A DNA stretch of 64,000 bases from Candidatus Velthaea sp. GTDB lineage: Bacteria; Vulcanimicrobiota; Vulcanimicrobiia; Vulcanimicrobiales; Vulcanimicrobiaceae. Shown piece by piece: positions 24,354 through 39,302 of the stretch. Numbering within the stretch: position 1 is the stretch's first letter; the number at the start of each line of letters is the position of its first letter. The notes beneath the pieces were generated by a model. It saw nothing but the letters and a program-made list of their open reading frames with translations. It was not told where the DNA came from and searched no databases. Location: contig JBEKHC010000007.1 of assembly GCA_050012475.1 (NCBI GenBank), positions 16,586-80,585 on the forward strand, read 5' to 3'. The translations under genes and the position numbers were made by a program.

Positions 24354-24908
24354 CTACGTCCGAACCGCGGCTCGGGCCGCGAGCTCGCTGCCTTTCCGAT
24401 CCGCGCAGTTGATCGCGCCGATCTCGCGATCGTGTGGAGCGAACGACTGCCGATTCGTCATCAGGTATACGGCCTTTGCAATGTCGACGGTACGCTTGAG
24501 GGGGAAACACGCATCCGCAAAGCGCACGTTCTGCGCTCGACCGACGGTTGAAAGATGAAACCGTCGTTTAATTCTTGTGAAAGAACTTTACTTCAAAAAT
24601 ACGTAGTAGCGCAAGATGTAACGCAAACTATTTTCATGTTACCCAGTAAGACAAAAGTTAGTCTTCCGACAATTAACACACGAAGTGCGGGCCGGAGCCT
24701 GCAATTCGGCATTACACCTACCGTAACCGCAGAATTCCTCGAGTCTAAATGCGACGTAAGTGGTAACTTTCGTTAGCGGCCATCGAAGACATTTGTCATG
24801 TCGGTCGACCGGGTTGGAGCTGCCGTTCCGCTGCGGGGCGGCGTTTTGGTGTGCGCTGTTGTGCGCCCAGTGGTGTCGTGCCGGCGACGGTCGCGAAACG
24901 AAAGCACG

Positions 24909-25325
24909 ATGAAACGTTCGACGTCGACAACGGCCGGATTGCCGCGATGCATTTCCGTTCAAACCGCCGGATCGACGTGGCGGGTGCACGCTGAAGCGAT
25001 GTGCTTCGGCGACGTTCTTGTCGCGATTTGGGGCGGCGAAAAACTACACATCGGGGCAGTTGCTGCTGCGTCGTGGCCAGTTGAACCGACCCGCGACGTC
25101 GAGTGCGACGTCGTCGGTACTGACGTCTATCGGGCACAAAGAGGACGTCGTGGTAAAGCCGGTAGCGGAAGCGCTGTGCGCCGGCTCGGCACCAATGTCG
25201 TCGTTACCTCCGGCCTCCATTGGGATGACCTCCCAGAACGCGGAATCGCCGCCATTCGCGCGAGCTGCACGGAACTCGTCGACTTGGTCGCGCTCGCGCT
25301 AACCAGAGACCCGCCAGCAGGCTAG
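24909..25325 (+). pseudogene. Frameshifted LpdD-like (prenylated-flavin chaperone-like) gene
   Basis: IWGGEKLHIGAVA and RLGTNVVVTSGLHWDDL in one frame; the linking segment SATSSVLTSIGHKEDVVVKPVAEAL is in another frame. Confidence 0.65.
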
Positions 25326-25664
25326 TTTACCGCCACACGTCCCACCAGACGCCGACCGGATGACCCAGGCAGCGAGCGAATGGCGTGCCGGGAGCCGACG
25401 TTTCCATCGGGTAGCAAAGTAGGCCACTGCGACAGCGAGGAAGTCGTGCCGGAAGTCAACGTCCCACTGGGGGAGTAACGGATGACCGCGGTAGCGAGCG
25501 AGCCATGCGCAAAGTCGCCGACCTTAAATCGGGCAGCAAGCCGATGACCGAGACGTACCGGACTAATGGTGCCGCAAACCGACCTTCCAGCGGGCAGCAA
25601 ATCAACCATCGTGGCCATCAACCGATCGGCCGAAGACGGCCTCAATCGGCGATGAAGGTCCGCC

Positions 25665-25694
25665 TTGACATTTGTTAACTCGGGCTTGTAGGCT
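25665..25694 (+). promoter_or_regulatory. Sigma70-type promoter of the HTH-ribBA-ribH operon with a palindrome over the -35 box
   Basis: TTGACA (25665-25670), 18 nt, TAGGCT (25689-25694), 7 nt, GTG; TTGACAttTGTTAA near-palindrome at 25665-25678. Confidence 0.7.
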
Positions 25695-25701
25695 TGAAGC
25701 C

Positions 25702-27126
25702 GTGGAGAATTTTTCAGCCGAGCTGTGCGCGGCAATGAGCGAGGCCGGCGTTTCCGCCGCCGAGCTTGCGCAGCGCTCGGGATTGACCGAGGGCGCGATC
25801 TCCTACCTCCGGTCGGGCCGGCGCGAGCCCTCATTCCGCTCGATCCAGGCGCTCAATGCGGCGCTGCCCGAACTTGCGGCGCGCTTCGATACGGAACGGA
25901 GAAAAATGGACTCGATCGAGTCGGCCATCGCCGACATCAAAGCCGGCAAGATGGTGGTCGTGCTCGACGATGAGGAGCGGGAGAACGAAGGCGACCTGGT
26001 GATGGCCGCCGAGCGCGTCACGAGCGAAGCGATCAACTTCATGCGCAAGGAAGCGGGCGGCCTGATCTGCGTCGCCTTGACGGGCGAGCGCCTCGACCGC
26101 CTGCAGATTCCGCCGATGGTGAACGACAACACCACGCCTTTGGGCACGGCGTTTACCGTCTCGGTCGAAGCGCGCGGCCGGGTCACCACCGGCATCTCGG
26201 CCCAAGACCGCTCGAACACGATTCTGGCCCTGATCGATCCGGCGGCGACGCCGGCCGACTTTCTCCGCCCAGGCCACACGTTTCCGCTGCGCTCGCGCGA
26301 CGGCGGCGTGCTCGTCCGGGCCGGACAAACGGAAGCATCGGTCGACCTCGCGCGGCTGGCCGGCCTCAAGCCCGCGGGCGTCATCTGCGAAATCATGGAT
26401 GATGACGGCTCGATGATGCGCTTGCCGCATTTGCGCGAATACGCGAAGAAACACGATTTGCGGCTGGTCACCGTCAAAGATCTCATCGCGTACCGGATGC
26501 GTCACGAGAAGCTCGTGCAGCGGATCGCCGAGTTCAATTTGCCGACGCCCTTCGGCTTGTTTCGCGGCTTTGCGTACGAATCGAAAGTCGACGACGTCGC
26601 GCACGTTGCGCTGGTCATGGGTCACATCGGCGACGGCAAAGACACGCTGGTGCGCGTCCATTCGGAATGCCTGACCGGCGACGCACTGCATTCGATTCGC
26701 TGCGACTGCGGCGCGCAGCGCGATGCAGCGATGGAAGCGATCGCGCGCGAAGGCCGCGGCGTCTTTCTCTACCTGCACCAGGAAGGCCGCGGCATCGGCC
26801 TCGCCAACAAGCTGCGCGCCTACGCGCTCCAAGATGCCGGCGCCGATACGGTCGAAGCGAACGTTGCCCTGGGGCTGCCGGCCGACAAACGCGATTACGG
26901 CATCGGTTCGCAGATTCTCGTCGATCTGGGTGTCCGCGAGATGCGCCTGCTCACCAACAACCCCACGAAGATCGCCGGACTCGAAGGTTTCGGGCTGACG
27001 CTGGCCGGACGGGTGCCGATTCAGACCAACCCCACCGTGCACAACTCGCACTATCTCGACACCAAGCGCGACAAGATGGGCCACTTGTTTGCCGGCGCGC
27101 CGGCGACCGTGCCGGTCGTGCCGTGA
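25702..27126 (+). CDS. ribBA: Bifunctional DHBP synthase/GTP cyclohydrolase II with N-terminal XRE-type HTH domain
   Basis: N-terminal SAAELAQRSGLTEGAISYLRSGRREPS HTH in frame with DDEERENEGDL, RAGQTEA, RVHSECLTGD, CDCG, QEGRGIGL, LLTNNPTK. Confidence 0.93.
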   Translation: MENFSAELCAAMSEAGVSAAELAQRSGLTEGAISYLRSGRREPSFRSIQALNAALPELAARFDTERRKMDSIESAIADIKAGKMVVVLDDEERENEGDLVMAAERVTSEAINFMRKEAGGLICVALTGERLDRLQIPPMVNDNTTPLGTAFTVSVEARGRVTTGISAQDRSNTILALIDPAATPADFLRPGHTFPLRSRDGGVLVRAGQTEASVDLARLAGLKPAGVICEIMDDDGSMMRLPHLREYAKKHDLRLVTVKDLIAYRMRHEKLVQRIAEFNLPTPFGLFRGFAYESKVDDVAHVALVMGHIGDGKDTLVRVHSECLTGDALHSIRCDCGAQRDAAMEAIAREGRGVFLYLHQEGRGIGLANKLRAYALQDAGADTVEANVALGLPADKRDYGIGSQILVDLGVREMRLLTNNPTKIAGLEGFGLTLAGRVPIQTNPTVHNSHYLDTKRDKMGHLFAGAPATVPVVP

Positions 27127-27620
27127 AGAAGACCGCCGCGGCAACCTCCTATCCCGACGCCAAAGGCAAACGTTTCGCGATCGTTTCGGCCCGGTTTTAC
27201 GGCGATCTCGCCGACTGGCTCGAAGACGGGGCGCGCCGCGGACTGCGCGACTGCGGGGTGAGCGAAAGCGACATCGACTTCGTTGCCGTGCCGGGCTGCT
27301 TCGAGATTCCGCTCGTTGCGCGGAACCTCATCGTCGGCGGCGAGTACGACGGGATCGTCGCGCTGGGCGTCGTCATTCGCGGCGACACGCCGCACTTCGA
27401 CTATGTCGCGGGTGAATGCGCGCGCGGGATCATGAACGTGCAGCTTACCACCGGCGTGCCGATCGGCTTCGGCATTCTGACGACCGAAAATCTCGCGCAA
27501 GCTGAGGAGCGTGCCGATCCGCAGCGGCTCGATAAAGGGCACGAAGCGGCGGTTGCGGCGGCCAGCGTCGCCGTCATCGAACCGTCCAAGCGCGACAAGC
27601 AGCGCGTCGGATTCCGCTAA
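27123..27620 (+). CDS. ribH: 6,7-dimethyl-8-ribityllumazine synthase
   Basis: VPGCFEIP, ALGVVIRGDTPHFDYV, FGILTT, KGHEAA. Confidence 0.95.
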   Translation: MKKTAAATSYPDAKGKRFAIVSARFYGDLADWLEDGARRGLRDCGVSESDIDFVAVPGCFEIPLVARNLIVGGEYDGIVALGVVIRGDTPHFDYVAGECARGIMNVQLTTGVPIGFGILTTENLAQAEERADPQRLDKGHEAAVAAASVAVIEPSKRDKQRVGFR

Positions 27621-28707: not shown

Positions 28708-29709
28708 ATCAAGTATTTCGATTTCGTCGACAAGGAACCGAAGCTCGACGGGCTGATCGTCGTCGAGGGAACCGACGTGCTGCTCGCGCAGCGGGCCATC
28801 GATACGGTCGTCGAGCGCGCCTTGCCCGCCGATATGCGCGCGCTCAACCTCGACGTGATCGCCGGCCCCGAAACCGACCACGTTGGGCGCGCGGTCGCCG
28901 ACGCATCGACCGCGATGCCGTTTCTCGCCGAACGGCGAGTGATCGTCGTGCGCAATTGCCAGCAACTGCGCGCGCAGCCGCGGCGCGACGTGTGGGCCGC
29001 GGCGCAAGCGCTGCCGGCCGGCAACACGCTGGTGCTCGAAGACCTTTTCCCGCCCAATAAGAAGACGAAGCCCGAGCCGTTCGGCGTGCTGGCCGGGCGC
29101 AAAGCGCTGCGCATCGATACGACCCTGAGCGCCGACGCGCGCGAGCGCTTCGTGCACGAAACCCTGGCGCGGTTGGGCGCGCGGGCCGAAGCGCGCGCCG
29201 TCGCGGAGCTCGCCGCCAGCGCCGCCGACCTCGGCTCGATCCAAAACGATCTCGAGAAGCTGGCCCTCTCCGGCAAGCCGATCACGCTCGCAATGCTCCA
29301 GAGCGAGAGCCTCACGATCGAAGATCCAAAAGCCTGGCAGTACGCGCAATCCTTGGTCGAGGGGCGAGCTCAAGAAGCCCTCGCCATCGCCTACGAACTG
29401 TTCGCGACCGATCCGCGCGGCGCGGCGGTCCCCCTCGCGAGCGCGCTCGCCGGCGAGATGAACTTGCTGTGGGAACTCGCGCGACCGGGCGGCGGCGACG
29501 CGGTCGAGCCGCGCCATCGCTGGCGTGCCGGCAAGCTGCAGGGTCTGGCACGCCGGATCGGGGCCGCGCGCGCCCGGCGCGGCTACGAAGCGGCCGTGCG
29601 CGGATTCGAAGCCGTCGTGACCGGGCGCATCGACGACGGCCGGGCGATGATCGAACTCCTCACCGCCGATATCGCTGCCAACGTAACTGCTGTCCGCACT
29701 CCCGCCTGA
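28708..29709 (+). CDS. holA: DNA polymerase III delta subunit (start uncertain: ATC 28708 or GTG 28777)
   Basis: LIVVEGTDVLL, LNLDVI, MPFLAERRVIVV, IQNDLEKLAL. Confidence 0.8.
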   Translation: MKYFDFVDKEPKLDGLIVVEGTDVLLAQRAIDTVVERALPADMRALNLDVIAGPETDHVGRAVADASTAMPFLAERRVIVVRNCQQLRAQPRRDVWAAAQALPAGNTLVLEDLFPPNKKTKPEPFGVLAGRKALRIDTTLSADARERFVHETLARLGARAEARAVAELAASAADLGSIQNDLEKLALSGKPITLAMLQSESLTIEDPKAWQYAQSLVEGRAQEALAIAYELFATDPRGAAVPLASALAGEMNLLWELARPGGGDAVEPRHRWRAGKLQGLARRIGAARARRGYEAAVRGFEAVVTGRIDDGRAMIELLTADIAANVTAVRTPA

Positions 29710-32395: not shown

Positions 32396-34712
32396 GGAAG
32401 CGTCGCTCGAAAGCGACGTCCTGCGCATCATCGAGCGGCGCAAGCAACTCGCGATCGGGTTGTCGGACGCCGAGATTCGCAGCATCGTGCGCAAGCTCGG
32501 GCGGCTGCCCTCCGACGTCGAGCTGTACGCGTTCGATGCGCAGTGGAGCGAGCATTGTTCGTATAAATCCAGTCGCCGTCATCTGCGCAAGCTGCCGACG
32601 GACGGTCCGACGGTCATGCAAGGACCGGCCGAGGATGCCGGCATTCTGCACCTCGGCGAATGGCAAGGCGATGCCTACGGCGTGGTGATCGCGCACGAGT
32701 CGCACAACCATCCCTCGCAAGTGGTGCCGTTCGAGGGCGCGGCGACGGGGATCGGCGGGATCGTCCGCGATGTCTTGTGCATGGGCGCCGAGGTGATCGC
32801 GATCGCGGACCCGCTGCGGTTTGGCCGGCTCGACGATCCGCATTGCCGCTACGTTGCGCAAAGCGTGGTCGACGGCATCGCCGCCTACGGCAACGCGATC
32901 GGCGTGCCCAACATCGGCGGCGACGTGTACATCGATGCGTCGTTCGACGACAACGTGCTCGTCAACGTCGTCGCGCTGGGTTTGGTCAAGCAAACCGACA
33001 TCATCCATTCCAAAGCACCGGCCGATTCGCTGGGCTGGGACATCGTGCTCGTCGGCAAGGCCACCGATCGCAGCGGGTTCGGCGGCGCGTCGTTTTCGTC
33101 GGTCACGCTCGATGAAGCCGATGCGCAAGCCAACAAGGGAGCGGTGCAAGTCCCCGATCCGTTCTTGAAAAACGTGATCATCCGGGCGTCCTACGCGGTG
33201 TTCGCCGAATTGCGGCGGCGCAAGATCACTGCCGGCTTCAAGGATCTGGGTGCCGGCGGGTTGGCCGGCTGCAGCGCCGAGCTGGTCGCCGCCGGCGGCT
33301 TCGGCGCGCAGATCGATCTGGGGCGCGCGCCCACCGCGCAGCCCAACCTGCCCGCGCCCGTCATCGCGATCGGCGAAACCCAAGAGCGGCTGTGCTGGAT
33401 CGTTCCGCCCGCGTTCACCCCGGAGCTGCTGCGCATCTATAACGAAACCTTCTCGCTGCCCGCCATCGCGCGCGGCGCGTGTGCAGCGGTGATCGGCACG
33501 GTAACCGGCACCGGCCGCTACGTGGCAACCCATCACGGCAGCGTGGTGATGGACGTTCCGCTCGATTTCCTGACCGAGGGCGTGCGCTACAATCGTCCCT
33601 ACACCATCGCTCTGCCGGATGCCGAGCCGATCGACGCGCTGCGCGAGCGCATCGGTTCCGCGTTGCCGCCTTTGACCCGCGCCGAAATTCTGACGCGGAT
33701 CGTGGCCCACCGCGACGTGTGTTCGCGCGCGGCGATCTTCGAGCGCTACGACGCGGTCGTGCGCGGCACGACCGCGGTGCCGCCGGGCTACGCGGATGCC
33801 GGCGTGATCGTGCCGATTCCGGGCGCGCCGCTGGCGATCGCCCTGGCGGTCGACGGCAATCCGCGCTACGGCAAAATCGACGCTCAGCGCGCCGCCGAAC
33901 TCGCCGTCGTCGAAGCCGTCTGCAACGTCGCGGCGGTCGGCGCGCGGCCGCTGGGGATGACCGACTGCCTCAACTTCGGCGATCCGACCGATCCGCGTCA
34001 GCTCGGCGAATTCGTCGCCGCGGTCGACGGCTTGGCGCACGCCGCGCGCGAATTGGGCACGCCGTTCGTCTCGGGGAACGTCAGCCTCTACAACCAATCC
34101 AAAGCCGGCCGCGCCGTGGCGCCGTCGCCGATCGTCGCCTGCGTCGGCGGGATCGCGGACATCGCGCTCACCGCCACCTCGGCCTTCAAGCGCGCGGGCT
34201 CGACGCTGCGCTACATCGGCGCGCCGCAAGCGGCGCTGGGCGGATCGGTGTATGCGGACGTCATGGGCTTCGCGACCAACGCCCTGCCGGTGCCCCACTA
34301 CGCGCAGATTCGCAAAGCCTTGGCCTTGCTGCAGACGGCATATGCCCGCAATCTGGTGTACGCGGCGCACGACGTGAGCGACGGCGGGTTGCTCGCCTGC
34401 ACCGCCGAGATGGCGTTCGCGACCCTCGACGGGACGCCGGTCGGCGCGCGCTTGGACGCGCCGCACTGGGCCGGCGACTTGCTCGAACGCGAGATCTGGT
34501 TCGCCGAGTACGGCGGTTTCGTCGTCGAAGTCAGCGACGACGCCGCCTTCGCCCGGCTCGCCGCCGAACTGCAAACCGACGCTCCGGCGATCGGGGTGAC
34601 GCTTGCACGCGCCGAACTCGTGCTGAGCGCGCCGGACGAAACGATCGGGCTGGCCGAATTGCGCGAAGCCTGGTCCGCGCCGCTGCGTGACTTTTACGGA
34701 ACGGCCGCGTGA
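32388..34712 (+). CDS. purL: FGAM synthase subunit PurL (small type)
   Basis: QWSEHCSYKSS, ESHNHPS, GAATGIGGIVRD, DLGAGGL, DCLNFGDP, VSGNVSLYN, HDVSDGG. Confidence 0.96.
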   Translation: MLEEASLESDVLRIIERRKQLAIGLSDAEIRSIVRKLGRLPSDVELYAFDAQWSEHCSYKSSRRHLRKLPTDGPTVMQGPAEDAGILHLGEWQGDAYGVVIAHESHNHPSQVVPFEGAATGIGGIVRDVLCMGAEVIAIADPLRFGRLDDPHCRYVAQSVVDGIAAYGNAIGVPNIGGDVYIDASFDDNVLVNVVALGLVKQTDIIHSKAPADSLGWDIVLVGKATDRSGFGGASFSSVTLDEADAQANKGAVQVPDPFLKNVIIRASYAVFAELRRRKITAGFKDLGAGGLAGCSAELVAAGGFGAQIDLGRAPTAQPNLPAPVIAIGETQERLCWIVPPAFTPELLRIYNETFSLPAIARGACAAVIGTVTGTGRYVATHHGSVVMDVPLDFLTEGVRYNRPYTIALPDAEPIDALRERIGSALPPLTRAEILTRIVAHRDVCSRAAIFERYDAVVRGTTAVPPGYADAGVIVPIPGAPLAIALAVDGNPRYGKIDAQRAAELAVVEAVCNVAAVGARPLGMTDCLNFGDPTDPRQLGEFVAAVDGLAHAARELGTPFVSGNVSLYNQSKAGRAVAPSPIVACVGGIADIALTATSAFKRAGSTLRYIGAPQAALGGSVYADVMGFATNALPVPHYAQIRKALALLQTAYARNLVYAAHDVSDGGLLACTAEMAFATLDGTPVGARLDAPHWAGDLLEREIWFAEYGGFVVEVSDDAAFARLAAELQTDAPAIGVTLARAELVLSAPDETIGLAELREAWSAPLRDFYGTAA

Positions 34713-35974: not shown

Positions 35975-37051
35975 ATGAGCATGATGGTGGAGACGCAACG
36001 CGATCAGCTAGGCGAGGACGCCGAAGCGCGGCAATTCTACACGATCGCTACACTGGGGTCGCACTCCGCCCTGCAGATCCTCAAAGGCGCGCACGACGAG
36101 GGCTTCCGCACGCTGGCGATCGCGACGCGTGACACCGAGCGTTTGTATCGAAGCTTCGCCTTCGTCGACGAAGTCATCGTGATCGCTCAGTACTCCGACT
36201 TCATCAAGCTCGTGCCCGATCTGGAGCGGCGCAAGATCATCGTCGTTCCGCACGGTTCGTTCGTCGCTTATCTGTCGCTCGACGATCATAAGAAGATGCG
36301 CATTCCGTACTTCGGCAACAAGGCGGTGCTCGATTGGGAAGCCAGCCGCGAACTGCAGCGTCAGTGGCTGACGCGCGCCGGTCTGCGCGTACCGCGTCAG
36401 TTCCGCACCGGCGCCGAAATCGATCGCCCTGTGATCGTCAAGCTCTACGGCGCGCAAGGCGGCAAGGGGTACATGTTCCTGCGCGACGCGCTGGATTTTG
36501 AAGAACGCGCCAGCTTGCTCGCCCGGCAGAATTATATTCTGCAAGAGTACATCATTGGCGTGCCGCTCTACATTCACTATTTTTATTCGCCGCTGACCGG
36601 CCGGCTCGAGATCATGTCGATGGACCGGCGCTACGAGACCAACGTCGATTCGCTGGGGCGCATCCCGTCGCGTGCGCAAGAGAGCATGGACATCGACCCG
36701 TCGTATGTCGTGGTCGGCAACTCACCGCTGAGCCTGCGCGAATCGATGTTGGCCGAAGCGTATCGGATGGGTGAGGACCTGGTGCGCGTCAGCCAGGAAA
36801 TCTGCGGTCCCAAAGGGCTGTTCGGCGCATTCTGCATCGAAACGATCATCACGCCGGACGCCCAGTTCTACATCATGGAAGTTTCGGCGCGCATCGTCGC
36901 GGGTACCAATTTGTTCATTGACGGTTCGCCGTATTCGTATCTCAATTACAGCGAGCCGATGTCGACCGGCCGCCGCATCGCGCGCGAAATCAAAAACGCT
37001 TTGCTCACCAATTCGCTGAGTGCCGTGCTGGATGACTCGAGCGTTCTTTGA
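35975..37051 (+). CDS. purP: Archaeal-type formate-dependent FAICAR synthetase (ATP-grasp)
   Basis: IATLGSHSALQILKGA, VPHGSFVAY, DRRYETNVD, LRESML, EVSARIVAGTN, MSTGRRIAREIK. Confidence 0.9.
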   Translation: MSMMVETQRDQLGEDAEARQFYTIATLGSHSALQILKGAHDEGFRTLAIATRDTERLYRSFAFVDEVIVIAQYSDFIKLVPDLERRKIIVVPHGSFVAYLSLDDHKKMRIPYFGNKAVLDWEASRELQRQWLTRAGLRVPRQFRTGAEIDRPVIVKLYGAQGGKGYMFLRDALDFEERASLLARQNYILQEYIIGVPLYIHYFYSPLTGRLEIMSMDRRYETNVDSLGRIPSRAQESMDIDPSYVVVGNSPLSLRESMLAEAYRMGEDLVRVSQEICGPKGLFGAFCIETIITPDAQFYIMEVSARIVAGTNLFIDGSPYSYLNYSEPMSTGRRIAREIKNALLTNSLSAVLDDSSVL

Positions 37052-37055
37052 GCGC

Positions 37056-38150
37056 GTGAAGCGCGCGGGCTGCGCGGCCGTCGCGGCAGCCCTGGTTGCG
37101 GGCGCACCTCCGGCGGCGCAAGCCGAGCTGCAGACCGACCCGATGGTGCTCTACGGCACGATGAAGGCGGCGTACGATAAAGGCATCGCGTCGGGCTGGC
37201 ACTTGGGCGACGAGCTGGATTATTTCTCAACCGTGCTCGATGCCGGCCGCGCGTTCGAACTGCGCCGCCGCGACGATCCGGAGAATGCCGCCCTCAAGGG
37301 CACGGCCGTCGATTTGGCCGCGCGGTTGCACTACGATCCGCTCATCAATCGCGATGCCGCCGAGTGGTACGTTCGGCTGGCGGCGCAAACCTACGCCAAC
37401 GATCCCGCCCGCGGCGCCGCCGCGCAGGCGCTGCTTGCCAAGCTCGACGCTGAGGACGCGAATTTCACCACGCTCGCGCACGACGCCGATGCCGACGCGA
37501 GTGCCAACGCCGCCAACTATGCCGGCGACGTCCAAGCGTTGCTCGGCCGGGTCGACGCCGACGTGCGTGCCTACGATTTGACGAAGGATTCGTATTACCG
37601 GTCGCTGGCGCTGCAGCGCGCGGCGGAGCCGGATTTCCCGATCGCACTCGTGCCGCCCGAAACGGCGAAGGACCTCAACGTGTTCACCGATGCCGCGCGG
37701 CTCGGGCGGATCGGCTACTCGACGAACGATCAGGAAGCGGCCAAGGCGATCGTTTCGCATCGCGCCACCGCGAAAACGATCCCGACGATCGGCCACGTCT
37801 TGTCGCACCAAGCGTACTTGGTCGTGACGGCGCCGGCCGACGAGTATTTCGGTCAAACCAAGCTCTCGCCGCTGGGCGTGCGCAATGCGCTCCTGCACAT
37901 CACGAAATATCTCGACGCCGGGTGGGGATCGCAGATGACCGGCGAGGCGCTCTACGTCGTCGATGCACTCGACGATTGGCGTCAGCAATATCCGCGCGAC
38001 TACGAGCTCCCGCGGTTGCTGCTCAATGCCTACAAAACACTCGACCGCATCAACTCACCGCAAGCCCGCGACGCCGAGATCCGGGTGAAGCGGCTGCTCA
38101 CCGTCGAATACAACGCCACGGACGAAGCACGGTCGCTGCTTGAAGGCTGA
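37056..38150 (+). CDS. Hypothetical secreted alpha-helical protein
   Basis: Long ORF with typical codon usage and signal peptide (M)KRAGCAAVAAALVAGAPPAAQA; no family recognised. Confidence 0.7.
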   Translation: MKRAGCAAVAAALVAGAPPAAQAELQTDPMVLYGTMKAAYDKGIASGWHLGDELDYFSTVLDAGRAFELRRRDDPENAALKGTAVDLAARLHYDPLINRDAAEWYVRLAAQTYANDPARGAAAQALLAKLDAEDANFTTLAHDADADASANAANYAGDVQALLGRVDADVRAYDLTKDSYYRSLALQRAAEPDFPIALVPPETAKDLNVFTDAARLGRIGYSTNDQEAAKAIVSHRATAKTIPTIGHVLSHQAYLVVTAPADEYFGQTKLSPLGVRNALLHITKYLDAGWGSQMTGEALYVVDALDDWRQQYPRDYELPRLLLNAYKTLDRINSPQARDAEIRVKRLLTVEYNATDEARSLLEG

Positions 38151-38162
38151 CGTCGAGCGTCC

Positions 38163-39302
38163 ATGACCGCCGCCTTCGACGTTCGTGCTGCGCTCGCGAC
38201 CTACGAGCCGGCGGCGCTGACGCTGTGCTCGATCGGCAGCCACTCGGCGCTCGAAGTCGCCGCCGGCGCGCGCGCCTGCGGTCTGCGCAATCTCATCGTT
38301 ACCGAGAGCGGCCGCGAGCGCACGTACACCGAGCACTATTTTCGCAAGCCCGCTCCGCCGCGCGGCTGCGTCGATGCGGTCTTGGCGCTGGCGAAGTTCA
38401 GCGACGTGCTCGATCCGGGCGTTCAAGACCGGCTGCTGGCGCAGAACGTGCTCTTCGTGGCGAACCGTTCGTTCGAGGTGTATTTGCGCCAACGCTACAC
38501 GTACCCCGAGATCGAACGCGGGATGCGCGTGCCGTTCTTCGGCTCGCGCACGCTGCTGCGCGCCGAAGAGCGCGACGAGGCCGACAACCAGTATGCGCTG
38601 CTCGAGCGCGCCGGGGTCCGCTATCCCAAACAATTTGCCCACGCCCGCGACATCGACCGGCTGTGCATCGTCAAGGCGCCCCACGCGAAGGTCTCATTCG
38701 AACGCGCGTTTTTCCTGGCGCGTTCGAGCGCGGATTACGAACGGCAGTGCGCGCTGTTGCTGGCCGACGGCATGGTCGATGAAACCGGCTTGCGCGGGGC
38801 GGTGATCGAGGAGTTCGCGCTCGGGCCGTCGGTCAATTTGAATTTCTTCTATTCGCCGATGCTGGGTGAACTCGAACTCATGGGCACGGACACGCGCCGT
38901 CAAACCAACCTCGAGGGGCTCAAGAATCTGCCGTTCGCACAAGCGCAGGCGCTCGCCGACGAGCCGGTGCGTTTGGAAGAAGCCGGACATATCTCGGCGA
39001 CGCTGACCGAGTCGATGCTGGAAAAAGCCTTCGCGATGGGCGAACGGTTCGTGCGCGCGACGCAGGCGAAGGGCCGGCGCGGCATCATCGGCCCGTTCGC
39101 GCTGCAATGCATCATCGTCGCGGGCCCGCCCAAGGACTTCATCGTCTACGACGTCTCGCTGCGCATCCCGGGCTCGCCCGGCACGCGCTTCACCCCCTAT
39201 TCGTCGTACCGGTGGGGCCGCGACGTTTCGGTCGGCGAACGCATCGCGATGGAAGTGGTCTGGGCGCGCGACGCCGGCCGGCTCGCGGATATCTTGACCT
39301 AA
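38163..39302 (+). CDS. PurP-like paralogue (DUF1246/DUF1297 ATP-grasp)
   Basis: IGSHSALEV, NRSF, FERAFF, DTRRQTN, GHISATLTESMLE, GPFALQ, YDVSLRIPGSPG. Confidence 0.85.
   Translation: MTAAFDVRAALATYEPAALTLCSIGSHSALEVAAGARACGLRNLIVTESGRERTYTEHYFRKPAPPRGCVDAVLALAKFSDVLDPGVQDRLLAQNVLFVANRSFEVYLRQRYTYPEIERGMRVPFFGSRTLLRAEERDEADNQYALLERAGVRYPKQFAHARDIDRLCIVKAPHAKVSFERAFFLARSSADYERQCALLLADGMVDETGLRGAVIEEFALGPSVNLNFFYSPMLGELELMGTDTRRQTNLEGLKNLPFAQAQALADEPVRLEEAGHISATLTESMLEKAFAMGERFVRATQAKGRRGIIGPFALQCIIVAGPPKDFIVYDVSLRIPGSPGTRFTPYSSYRWGRDVSVGERIAMEVVWARDAGRLADILT

Follow-up and report, generated by a model that had tools for sequence, protein, structure and literature searches.

How might a bacterium that has no flavin mononucleotide (FMN) riboswitch hold in check the enzyme with which riboflavin synthesis begins? 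The question is raised by a locus within a 64,000-nucleotide stretch of Candidatus Velthaea sp. DNA (contig JBEKHC010000007.1 of assembly GCA_050012475.1; the whole stretch is called the window below). The gene there for RibBA, the bifunctional enzyme of the two entry steps of riboflavin synthesis, opens with a region encoding an XRE-type helix-turn-helix (HTH) domain, and is preceded by a palindrome that lies on its own promoter. From comparison of sequences and from structural models we infer binding to that palindrome, mediation of the binding by a dimer, and repression: the product is probably a dimeric trigger enzyme that represses ribBA-ribH by occupying its own −35 box. The features on which the argument turns are these:

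25664..25679, + strand: 16-bp palindromic operator candidate, CTTGACAttTGTTAAC, whose left half contains the −35 box
25665..25704, + strand: predicted leaderless promoter, with −35 TTGACA at 25665-25670, an 18-nt spacer, −10 TAGGCT at 25689-25694, then 7 nt and the start GTG at 25702
25702..25905, + strand: N-terminal XRE/Cro-C1 HTH (residues 1-62) and variable linker (residues 63-68), as delimited by Pfam, AlphaFold2 and the ratio of nonsynonymous to synonymous substitution rates (dN/dS)
25906..27126, + strand: complete bifunctional RibBA, with 3,4-dihydroxy-2-butanone 4-phosphate (DHBP) synthase at about 25918-26493 and GTP cyclohydrolase II at about 26521-27018

A preliminary description of this DNA had noted the near-palindrome TTGACA-tt-TGTTAA, with the −35 box as one of its halves, and it lies just where that description had put it. 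Its 14-bp core, TTGACAttTGTTAA, at 25665-25678 extends to 16 bp as CTTGACAttTGTTAAC at 25664-25679. The 16-bp site, CTTGACAnnTGTTAAG, overlies the −35 box of the predicted leaderless promoter, and the centre of the palindrome is about 30 bp before the predicted start of both transcription and translation at 25702. A site that covers the −35 hexamer some 30 bp before the start is in the position of a repressor; class II activators bind near −41.5. The pattern TTGACANNTGTTAA has a single occurrence in the 5,363,455-base genome, and when the genome is scored with a matrix built from 23 orthologous sites, this site is the best in it (27.1 bits; the runner-up has 20.2 bits).

It had been proposed that TTRACAnnTGTYAA should be conserved upstream of fused orthologues and absent from unfused ones, and both halves of the proposal have held. 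An equivalent site is present 30-40 nt before the start in all 24 fused loci first compared (23, and L059 which was found later). In a larger set of 80 related loci, 11 of which repeat earlier ones, every one of the 78 with enough upstream sequence has a site of at least 15 bits within 90 nt, and 45 distinct strings are represented. The distance from site to start is 29-42 nt in 73 of these 78 and up to 72 nt in the remainder. T3, C6, G11, A14 and A15 occur in 78 of 78 sites, T2 and A5 in 77, T12 in 73 and T10 in 67. By this comparison the conservation of the second half-site equals that of the −35 box, though the promoter does not need it. Coding constraint cannot explain the conservation, because the neighbouring gene upstream differs between genomes (a PAC_bac gene in this one, ribE in others). 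Elsewhere in five fused and five unfused genomes, patterns of the TTRACAnnTGTYAA type are at background level. L008, L011 and L012 have a second, weaker copy of the palindrome 35-100 nt farther upstream, possibly an auxiliary operator.

The families compared are that of the window (f1), its sister family in the same order (f2) and, as the next one in the class, f3. The rib genes of f3 are arranged in a compact ribD-ribE-ribBA-ribH operon whose RibBA has no head, and no site of at least 8 bits was found in any of nine such operons, each taken with at least 2 kb upstream of ribD. Inside the fused order there are also four headless RibBA genes (L060, L062, L063 and L024), and none of the four has a site of at least 7 bits. 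On a maximum-likelihood tree of the enzyme part (30 rows; L005, L011, L013 and L025 are not among them, their aligned span containing a stop) the four are nested among fused genes, with f3 split from the order at 100/100 support. Branches with good support require a minimum of three changes (one gain, two losses), and parsimony gives five. This is a natural experiment in which at least two lineages, and four by parsimony, have lost HTH and half-site together. L063, the most telling case, retains TTGACA-17-TAGCCT-6-ATG and the TGTTAA half-site is gone. Since its promoter is kept where head and TGTTAA have been lost, the promoter does not require the second half-site, which goes with the head. 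Of the four, L024 carries the least weight because its fragmented genome also holds a fused fragment on another contig.

The promoter itself, given earlier as TTGACA-18-TAGGCT-7-GTG, is present as written. Its strict geometry (−35 box, 17-18 nt, TAnnnT, 6-7 nt, in-frame start) recurs in 15 of 23 fused orthologues. The leaderless pattern is found 28 times in the genome, 12 times followed by an open reading frame (ORF) of at least 80 amino acids, and the genome read backwards as a control gives 4 and 0; on this count leaderless promoters are in use in this organism. A stricter sigma-70 scan did not list the ribBA promoter because its −10 box matches TATAAT at only three of six positions.

The head of about 68 amino acids had been described as running in frame into a complete RibBA, and the open frame and three Pfam domains confirm it. 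One + strand frame, 25702-27126, yields a single 474-residue protein with an XRE-type HTH, a short variable linker and a complete RibBA. It stays open from TTG 25672 or GTG 25702 through 27126, with the stop codon at 27124-27126. HTH_3 (PF01381) matches residues 24-65 of the protein (P0001) at 24.7 bits (cut-off 23; E 2.4e-5). DHBP_synthase (PF00926) follows with 293.9 bits over profile positions 1-191 of 191 and then GTP_cyclohydro2 (PF00925) with 234.6 bits over positions 2-165 of 165, in their usual order. The enzyme part matches the solved RibBA chain 4i14_A over residues 1-398 (E 2.6e-145). RENEGD (residues 93-98), HSECLTGD, C323, C334 and C336, which we take to be catalytic and zinc residues of RibBA, are invariant in 84 aligned sequences. 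The genome of the window has one RibBA match, this fused gene.

An AlphaFold2 model built from 84 relatives gives the head helices at residues 3-15, 19-26, 30-38, 45-54 and 56-62, with a block-mean predicted local distance difference test score (pLDDT) of 77-92 over residues 1-60, and predicts a compact five-helix fold with the helix-turn-helix at helices 2-3. In the linker, residues 64-67 have pLDDT below 50. The solved sequences closest to the 68-residue head are those of the phage 434 repressor and a HigA antitoxin (both E 0.013). The recognition helix is the most conserved part of the head in 84 proteins: G27, I33, S34 and R37 are invariant, and T29 and E30 are kept in at least 90%. In five within-genus pairs the head has dN/dS of 0.07-0.17, and in within-genus pairs the RibB and RibA domains have about 0.05; the linker, with all pairs taken, has a ratio of nonsynonymous to synonymous polymorphism (pN/pS) of about 0.9, i.e. 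near neutral. Purifying selection acts on the HTH, and the fused protein is a genuine product that selection maintains.

A stop or read error at the junction of HTH and RibBA would have told against the fusion, and none was seen. Contigs from other samples confirm the junction: DNA contig X2 spans 25572-26216 with 0 differences, and DNA contig X3, from another sample again, spans 25640-26213 with three substitutions and no indel. A 300-nt contig from an RNA library (25719-26018, identical) bridges HTH and RibB, and is a weak hint only because an RNA library may also contain DNA. The RNA runs, for which there are contigs only and hence no readable transcription start, do not cover 25300-25704. 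Among the related loci, G331:C14 at about 666162-666549 and G384:C23 at about 37636-38024 (L065/L069 and L066/L070) have HTH and RibBA in frames that differ and overlap, the shift falling in the linker, which is either an assembly error or a natural separation into regulator and enzyme.

At the boundary with RibB there is a candidate second start:

25898..25908, + strand: Shine-Dalgarno-like GGAGA and in-frame ATG at the start of RibB, a candidate second start from which plain RibBA would be made

The ATG that opens the RibB part is at 25906-25908, which corrects the position given before. GGAGA is three bases before it, encoded within CGG-AGA (Arg-Arg). Both elements are kept in four of four loci of the window's genus, and the ATG in two loci of the sister family. 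A plain RibBA may thus be made in this genus beside the DNA-binding enzyme, and mixed dimers would carry one HTH. In 17 of 23 fused orthologues there is no start codon at the boundary, which leaves the fused protein as their only RibBA. As the genome also has a single RibBA match, the fused protein must be the working enzyme. The single match, the want of a second start in most orthologues and strong purifying selection on the enzyme domains agree in making this polypeptide the cell's working RibBA, as a trigger enzyme should be.

The search for HTH_3, DHBP_synthase and GTP_cyclohydro2 in one protein has found the architecture conserved in many relatives. RibBA is present in all 41 related genomes searched, where f1 and f2 matches begin at query residues 1-5 and run without a stop, and f3 matches begin at residues 37-71. 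The conserved head, with the pattern F..L..AM..AGLSAAELA.RSGLTE.AISYLRSGRR.PS, was present in 23 of the 30 loci that these 41 returned; several low scores among the relatives are those of contig-end fragments. Fusion in one frame was found in 76 of the 80 loci of named species genomes. These 80 belong to Vulcanimicrobiota / Candidatus Eremiobacteraeota (a few metagenome-assembled genomes are labelled otherwise), include Lustribacter, Elarobacter, Baltobacteraceae and Vulcanimicrobiaceae, and have Candidatus Velthaea among the closest. Across 401 genomes of the phylum, residues 1-130 are matched in 278 of 296 f1 and 5 of 5 f2 genomes, mostly with E 1e-40 to 1e-77; all of the 150 phylum matches listed begin at residues 1-9, there being 190 further matches beyond those listed. 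In this sample the matches of f3 (27 of 30) and of two other families to residues 1-130 are only at 1e-13 to 1e-24, values that fit the RibB part alone. As far as these genomes indicate, the fusion is kept across two families and is confined to a single order of the Vulcanimicrobiota (Eremiobacterota), whose members are bacteria of soil and peat. Genomes flagged as unpublished enter these counts (G024 and G011 in the 23 fused loci, G036 among the unfused, and 13 in the tallies for the phylum); with G024 and G011 removed, the first fused count becomes 21 of 21.

When the head alone was used in a word-based protein search, 128 clusters of RibBA length were found. Of 120 relatives listed, all except three (P0034, P0107 and P0120) carry PF01381 or PF13560, and every name shown in their public annotation is that of a plain bifunctional RibBA. 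In the ESM Atlas the protein's own cluster has 52 members with HTH_3 on 88% of them and Vulcanimicrobiota as the commonest phylum. In two other RibBA clusters there, 16-17% of members carry HTH_3, which is a lead to fusions elsewhere. A search for the origin of the head among shorter proteins found no close free-standing homologue; it gave 19 matches, of which 15 are fusion fragments since they also have a RibB domain. A profile search of 1.84 billion representatives for the same origin gave 8,748 matches at E<=0.001 with no informative sister group, dominated by multi-HTH repeat proteins and generic XRE proteins.

A palindrome calls for a protein with two-fold symmetry, which the enzyme body can supply according to the model of a homodimer of residues 1-280. 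The model scores 0.83, with 0.00 for the best of three controls, a mark that in calibration was reached by 20 of 30 solved one-chain pairs and 1 of 23 solved single chains, and the pass may reflect likeness to known structures because DHBP synthase dimers have already been solved. The runs agree in at least 98% of contacts, partner pLDDT is at least 87, and the interface is confined to residues 94-238, in the DHBP-synthase domain. In the mechanism proposed, RibBA would dimerise through this domain and so present two HTH heads, which would occupy the two half-sites of CTTGACA-nn-TGTTAAG. With the palindrome over the −35 box occupied, RNA polymerase would be kept off the promoter. Accumulation of the enzyme would in this way lead to repression of the leaderless ribBA-ribH transcript, a protein-based negative feedback.

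That the transcript includes ribH is expected from the next gene:

27123..27620, + strand: ribH (lumazine synthase), Pfam DMRL_synthase at 162.2 bits

Its GTG start at 27123 overlaps the ribBA stop as GTGA, and because of this overlap the two genes are taken as one unit of transcription and translation. RibH follows RibBA in 29 of 30 related loci. mtnA begins 53 nt downstream of ribH and the gap has no terminator-like hairpin. ribD and ribE are 8 kb upstream of ribBA, at about 15.8-17.6 kb of the window. Control of riboflavin synthesis by the fused protein, as first put forward, stands in part: ribBA-ribH carry the site and ribD-ribE do not, so that the control predicted covers ribBA-ribH only.

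A wider regulon was considered and rejected, the next-best matches in the genome (20.2-17.0 bits) being without a riboflavin link. They are in an AT-rich repeat spacer, within ORFs without a Pfam match, within an Xre-antitoxin ORF and within a phosphoglucomutase gene. In five other fused genomes, pattern matches adjoin unrelated genes (for a ferritin-like protein, DUF5996, ScpA and an epimerase). The match that ranks second by the matrix (20.2 bits) is at L031 2350-2780 (G000:C6, about 33500-33930), a stretch in an AT-rich intergenic region of about 1.2 kb after an AidB-like acyl-CoA dehydrogenase gene, with the repeated words ctttaca and cgttaaa; it looks iteron-like or like part of a mobile element, and is unrelated to riboflavin.

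Four other explanations of the site and the head have been weighed. In the first the fused protein does bind the palindrome, as an activator or, depending on its concentration, as activator and repressor, like ClgR or the C proteins of restriction-modification systems (all of these are small XRE-type HTH proteins too). C.BclI (E 0.13) and ClgR (E 0.1) are among the weak Protein Data Bank (PDB) matches of the head, the weak −10 box could call for activation, and L008, L011 and L012 have their second related site farther upstream. Activation is nevertheless unlikely. The −35 box is a perfect TTGACA in most orthologues with a spacer of 17-18 nt, the site over it is by general knowledge at a repressor's distance from the start, and L063, which has neither the HTH nor the second half-site, keeps the same promoter, which can stand without the protein.

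A second explanation assigns the palindrome to a separately encoded regulator, with the fused HTH binding elsewhere or having another role. Thousands of XRE proteins match the HTH profile (the 8,748 at E<=0.001), so that there are others which could bind such a site, yet it is very unlikely that one of them is its owner: site and head are together in 24 of 24 and 78 of 78 loci and both missing from four of four nested unfused loci and nine of nine f3 operons, the genome offers the head no other strong site, and the search for a close free-standing relative of the head found none, 15 of its 19 shorter matches also carrying RibB.

A third explanation, for which nothing speaks directly, is that the HTH has ceased to bind DNA and serves as a protein-protein or solubility module, with TGTTAA a feature of the gene's promoter. 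This would be surprising for a domain whose predicted recognition helix is its most conserved part, and L063 shows the half-site vanishing with the HTH while the promoter stays; moreover TTGACANNTGTTAA occurs once in a genome that has 28 promoters of the same leaderless geometry. The explanation is highly improbable.

Finally, that the upstream frame stays open by chance, the genome being GC-rich, or through faulty assembly, with ATG 25906 as the real start, might be suggested by the GGAGA and ATG at 25898-25908 and by the split frames of G331 and G384, but is refuted as a general explanation by an HTH_3 match above the Pfam cut-off, by purifying selection on a head that is conserved across two families, by the want of a boundary start codon in most orthologues and by confirmation of the junction in two other samples.

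Several points weigh against a dimeric repressor of ribBA-ribH. The HTH heads are outside the modelled dimer interface, and the model is silent on their geometry with respect to a site of 14-16 bp. The −10 box is weak by E. coli consensus (3/6 matches to TATAAT), and 8 of 23 orthologues deviate from the strict leaderless geometry, most of them as near variants. Neither the next-best sites of this genome nor the pattern matches in five other fused genomes have a further target linked to riboflavin near them, and ribD-ribE are without a site, which means that control does not extend over the pathway as a unit. That site and head occur together in relatives does not count as independent evidence, since the feature has a single origin. 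The f3 and other headless families of the phylum are also without an FMN riboswitch. To our knowledge RibBA has no ligand pocket besides its catalytic sites. According to a 2026 review, riboflavin exerts no direct regulation on the enzymes of the pathway (PMC13151069).

In an extension of the repressor proposal the RibBA body would itself be the sensor: GTP or ribulose-5-phosphate in its catalytic sites, or a bound intermediate or flavin, would shift the dimer's hold on its heads, and occupancy of the promoter would follow precursor supply or flavin demand. In the window's genus, a short headless isoform, which the internal Shine-Dalgarno and ATG could add, would give one-HTH heterodimers, and the ratio of isoforms would tune repression. 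Such sensing is a tentative idea and is rather doubted than believed. If true, it would provide the first metabolite-sensing transcription factor built on the riboflavin entry enzyme, and the first dedicated protein regulator of the riboflavin pathway in Bacteria, taking the place of the FMN riboswitch in a phylum in which none has been found.

The absence of an FMN riboswitch at ribBA or before ribD-ribE, remarked on earlier, extends to window and genome. The FMN riboswitch model (RF00050) has no match in the window at Rfam gathering scores, and none in 25200-25950 or in the whole genome at E<=1. The same search found none in 41 relatives and none in 151 genomes of the phylum; it was positive in 7 of 14 control genomes. 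As the headless families lack the riboswitch too, the fusion is neither necessary where it is lacking nor a one-for-one replacement of it. The riboswitch (RFN element) resembles the present case in giving feedback control of ribB, ribBA or a rib operon at the 5′ end of the gene. It differs in being RNA-based and in requiring a leader; the ribBA mRNA here is predicted to be leaderless.

How does the proposed repressor compare with known systems? Phage 434 repressor and Cro, and XRE-family proteins generally, are of the same five-helix HTH_3 class and bind as dimers to short palindromes that overlap promoters. The 434-type operator is 14 bp long. Dimerisation of these proteins is intrinsic or through a C-terminal domain, whereas here the enzyme body would supply it, and the sequence similarity of the 434 repressor to the head is weak (E 0.013). 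Among bacterial enzymes with a DNA-binding domain, BirA and NadR have HTH or winged-HTH folds and PutA a ribbon-helix-helix. PutA, as proposed here, dimerises through its enzyme body and has the DNA-binding domain at the N terminus. None of the three involves RibBA or riboflavin synthesis, and their ligand logic is known. All are listed as bacterial trigger enzymes in the available text of PMC5397151, and in each, as would be the case here, a DNA-binding domain on an active metabolic enzyme represses genes of the enzyme's own pathway.

The closest known system, by analogy, is RbkR of Archaea, a riboflavin kinase joined to a winged HTH, on which CTP acts as stimulator and FMN as suppressor (Rodionova et al. 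2017, PMC5397151). As that paper's available text presents it, RbkR is likewise an enzyme of flavin metabolism with an N-terminal DNA-binding domain and palindromes on its own gene (for RbkR on rib genes also), it occurs in organisms without FMN riboswitches, and it was predicted by the same comparative-genomic logic. The two differ in the enzyme, which for RbkR is the CTP-dependent kinase of the last step and here is RibBA of the two entry steps; in the fold, which is a winged HTH in Archaea and an XRE/Cro-C1 five-helix HTH in Bacteria; and in reach, with a wider regulon and experimentally shown ligands for RbkR and a site on its own promoter only in the present case. The domains found here, HTH_3, DHBP_synthase and GTP_cyclohydro2, place the protein outside the RbkR family. 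Protein factors on the promoter of a bifunctional ribA (ribBA) in a bacterium have a precedent in Wolbachia, where wBmxR1 and wBmxR2 bind the ribA promoter as free-standing regulators (Li and Carlow 2012, PMC3518464); according to the available text these are unfused proteins, co-regulate type IV secretion genes and activate a reporter.

The available text of three papers describes bacterial riboflavin synthesis as riboswitch-controlled (PMC5397151, PMC13028884 and PMC13151069), and that of the two 2026 reviews among them mentions only riboswitches and RibR for bacteria (PMC13028884 and PMC13151069). The suggestion that the system is an undescribed one is in accord with a literature search, supplements being outside it, that found no paper on an HTH-RibBA fusion.

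Other features of the surroundings deserve mention. The spacer between the PAC_bac gene and the ribBA promoter, 25337-25600, is filled by degenerate direct repeats, four to five in number, that have a period of 61 bp and are 71-86% alike. They have no other occurrence in the genome, the three other genomes of the genus do not have them before ribBA, one other sample has indels there, and Rfam gives no match. Tandem Repeats Finder run on 24500-26200 reported nothing, though the degenerate repeats are within it. Downstream, the paralogous genes at 35975-37051 and 38163-39302 close a purine run (purB, purC, purL, purQ) and have DUF1246 and DUF1297, a pair presumably of the PurP type, an archaeal-style FAICAR synthetase. 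Between them is a 376-amino-acid ORF without a Pfam match (37020-38150). A 310-amino-acid ORF at 28777-29709 that the preliminary description had labelled holA has no Pfam match at E<=0.01.

The interpretation of the fused RibBA as a repressor of its own operon passes every test open to sequence comparison. What it proposes is a compact unit of one gene, one 16-bp site and one leaderless promoter, in which the enzyme family, the position in the pathway and the phylum are new. The short list of trigger enzymes (BirA, NadR, PutA and RbkR) would gain a further enzyme family, and the unit would be a protein solution to control at the entry enzyme of the riboflavin pathway, in the little-known phylum Vulcanimicrobiota/Eremiobacterota.

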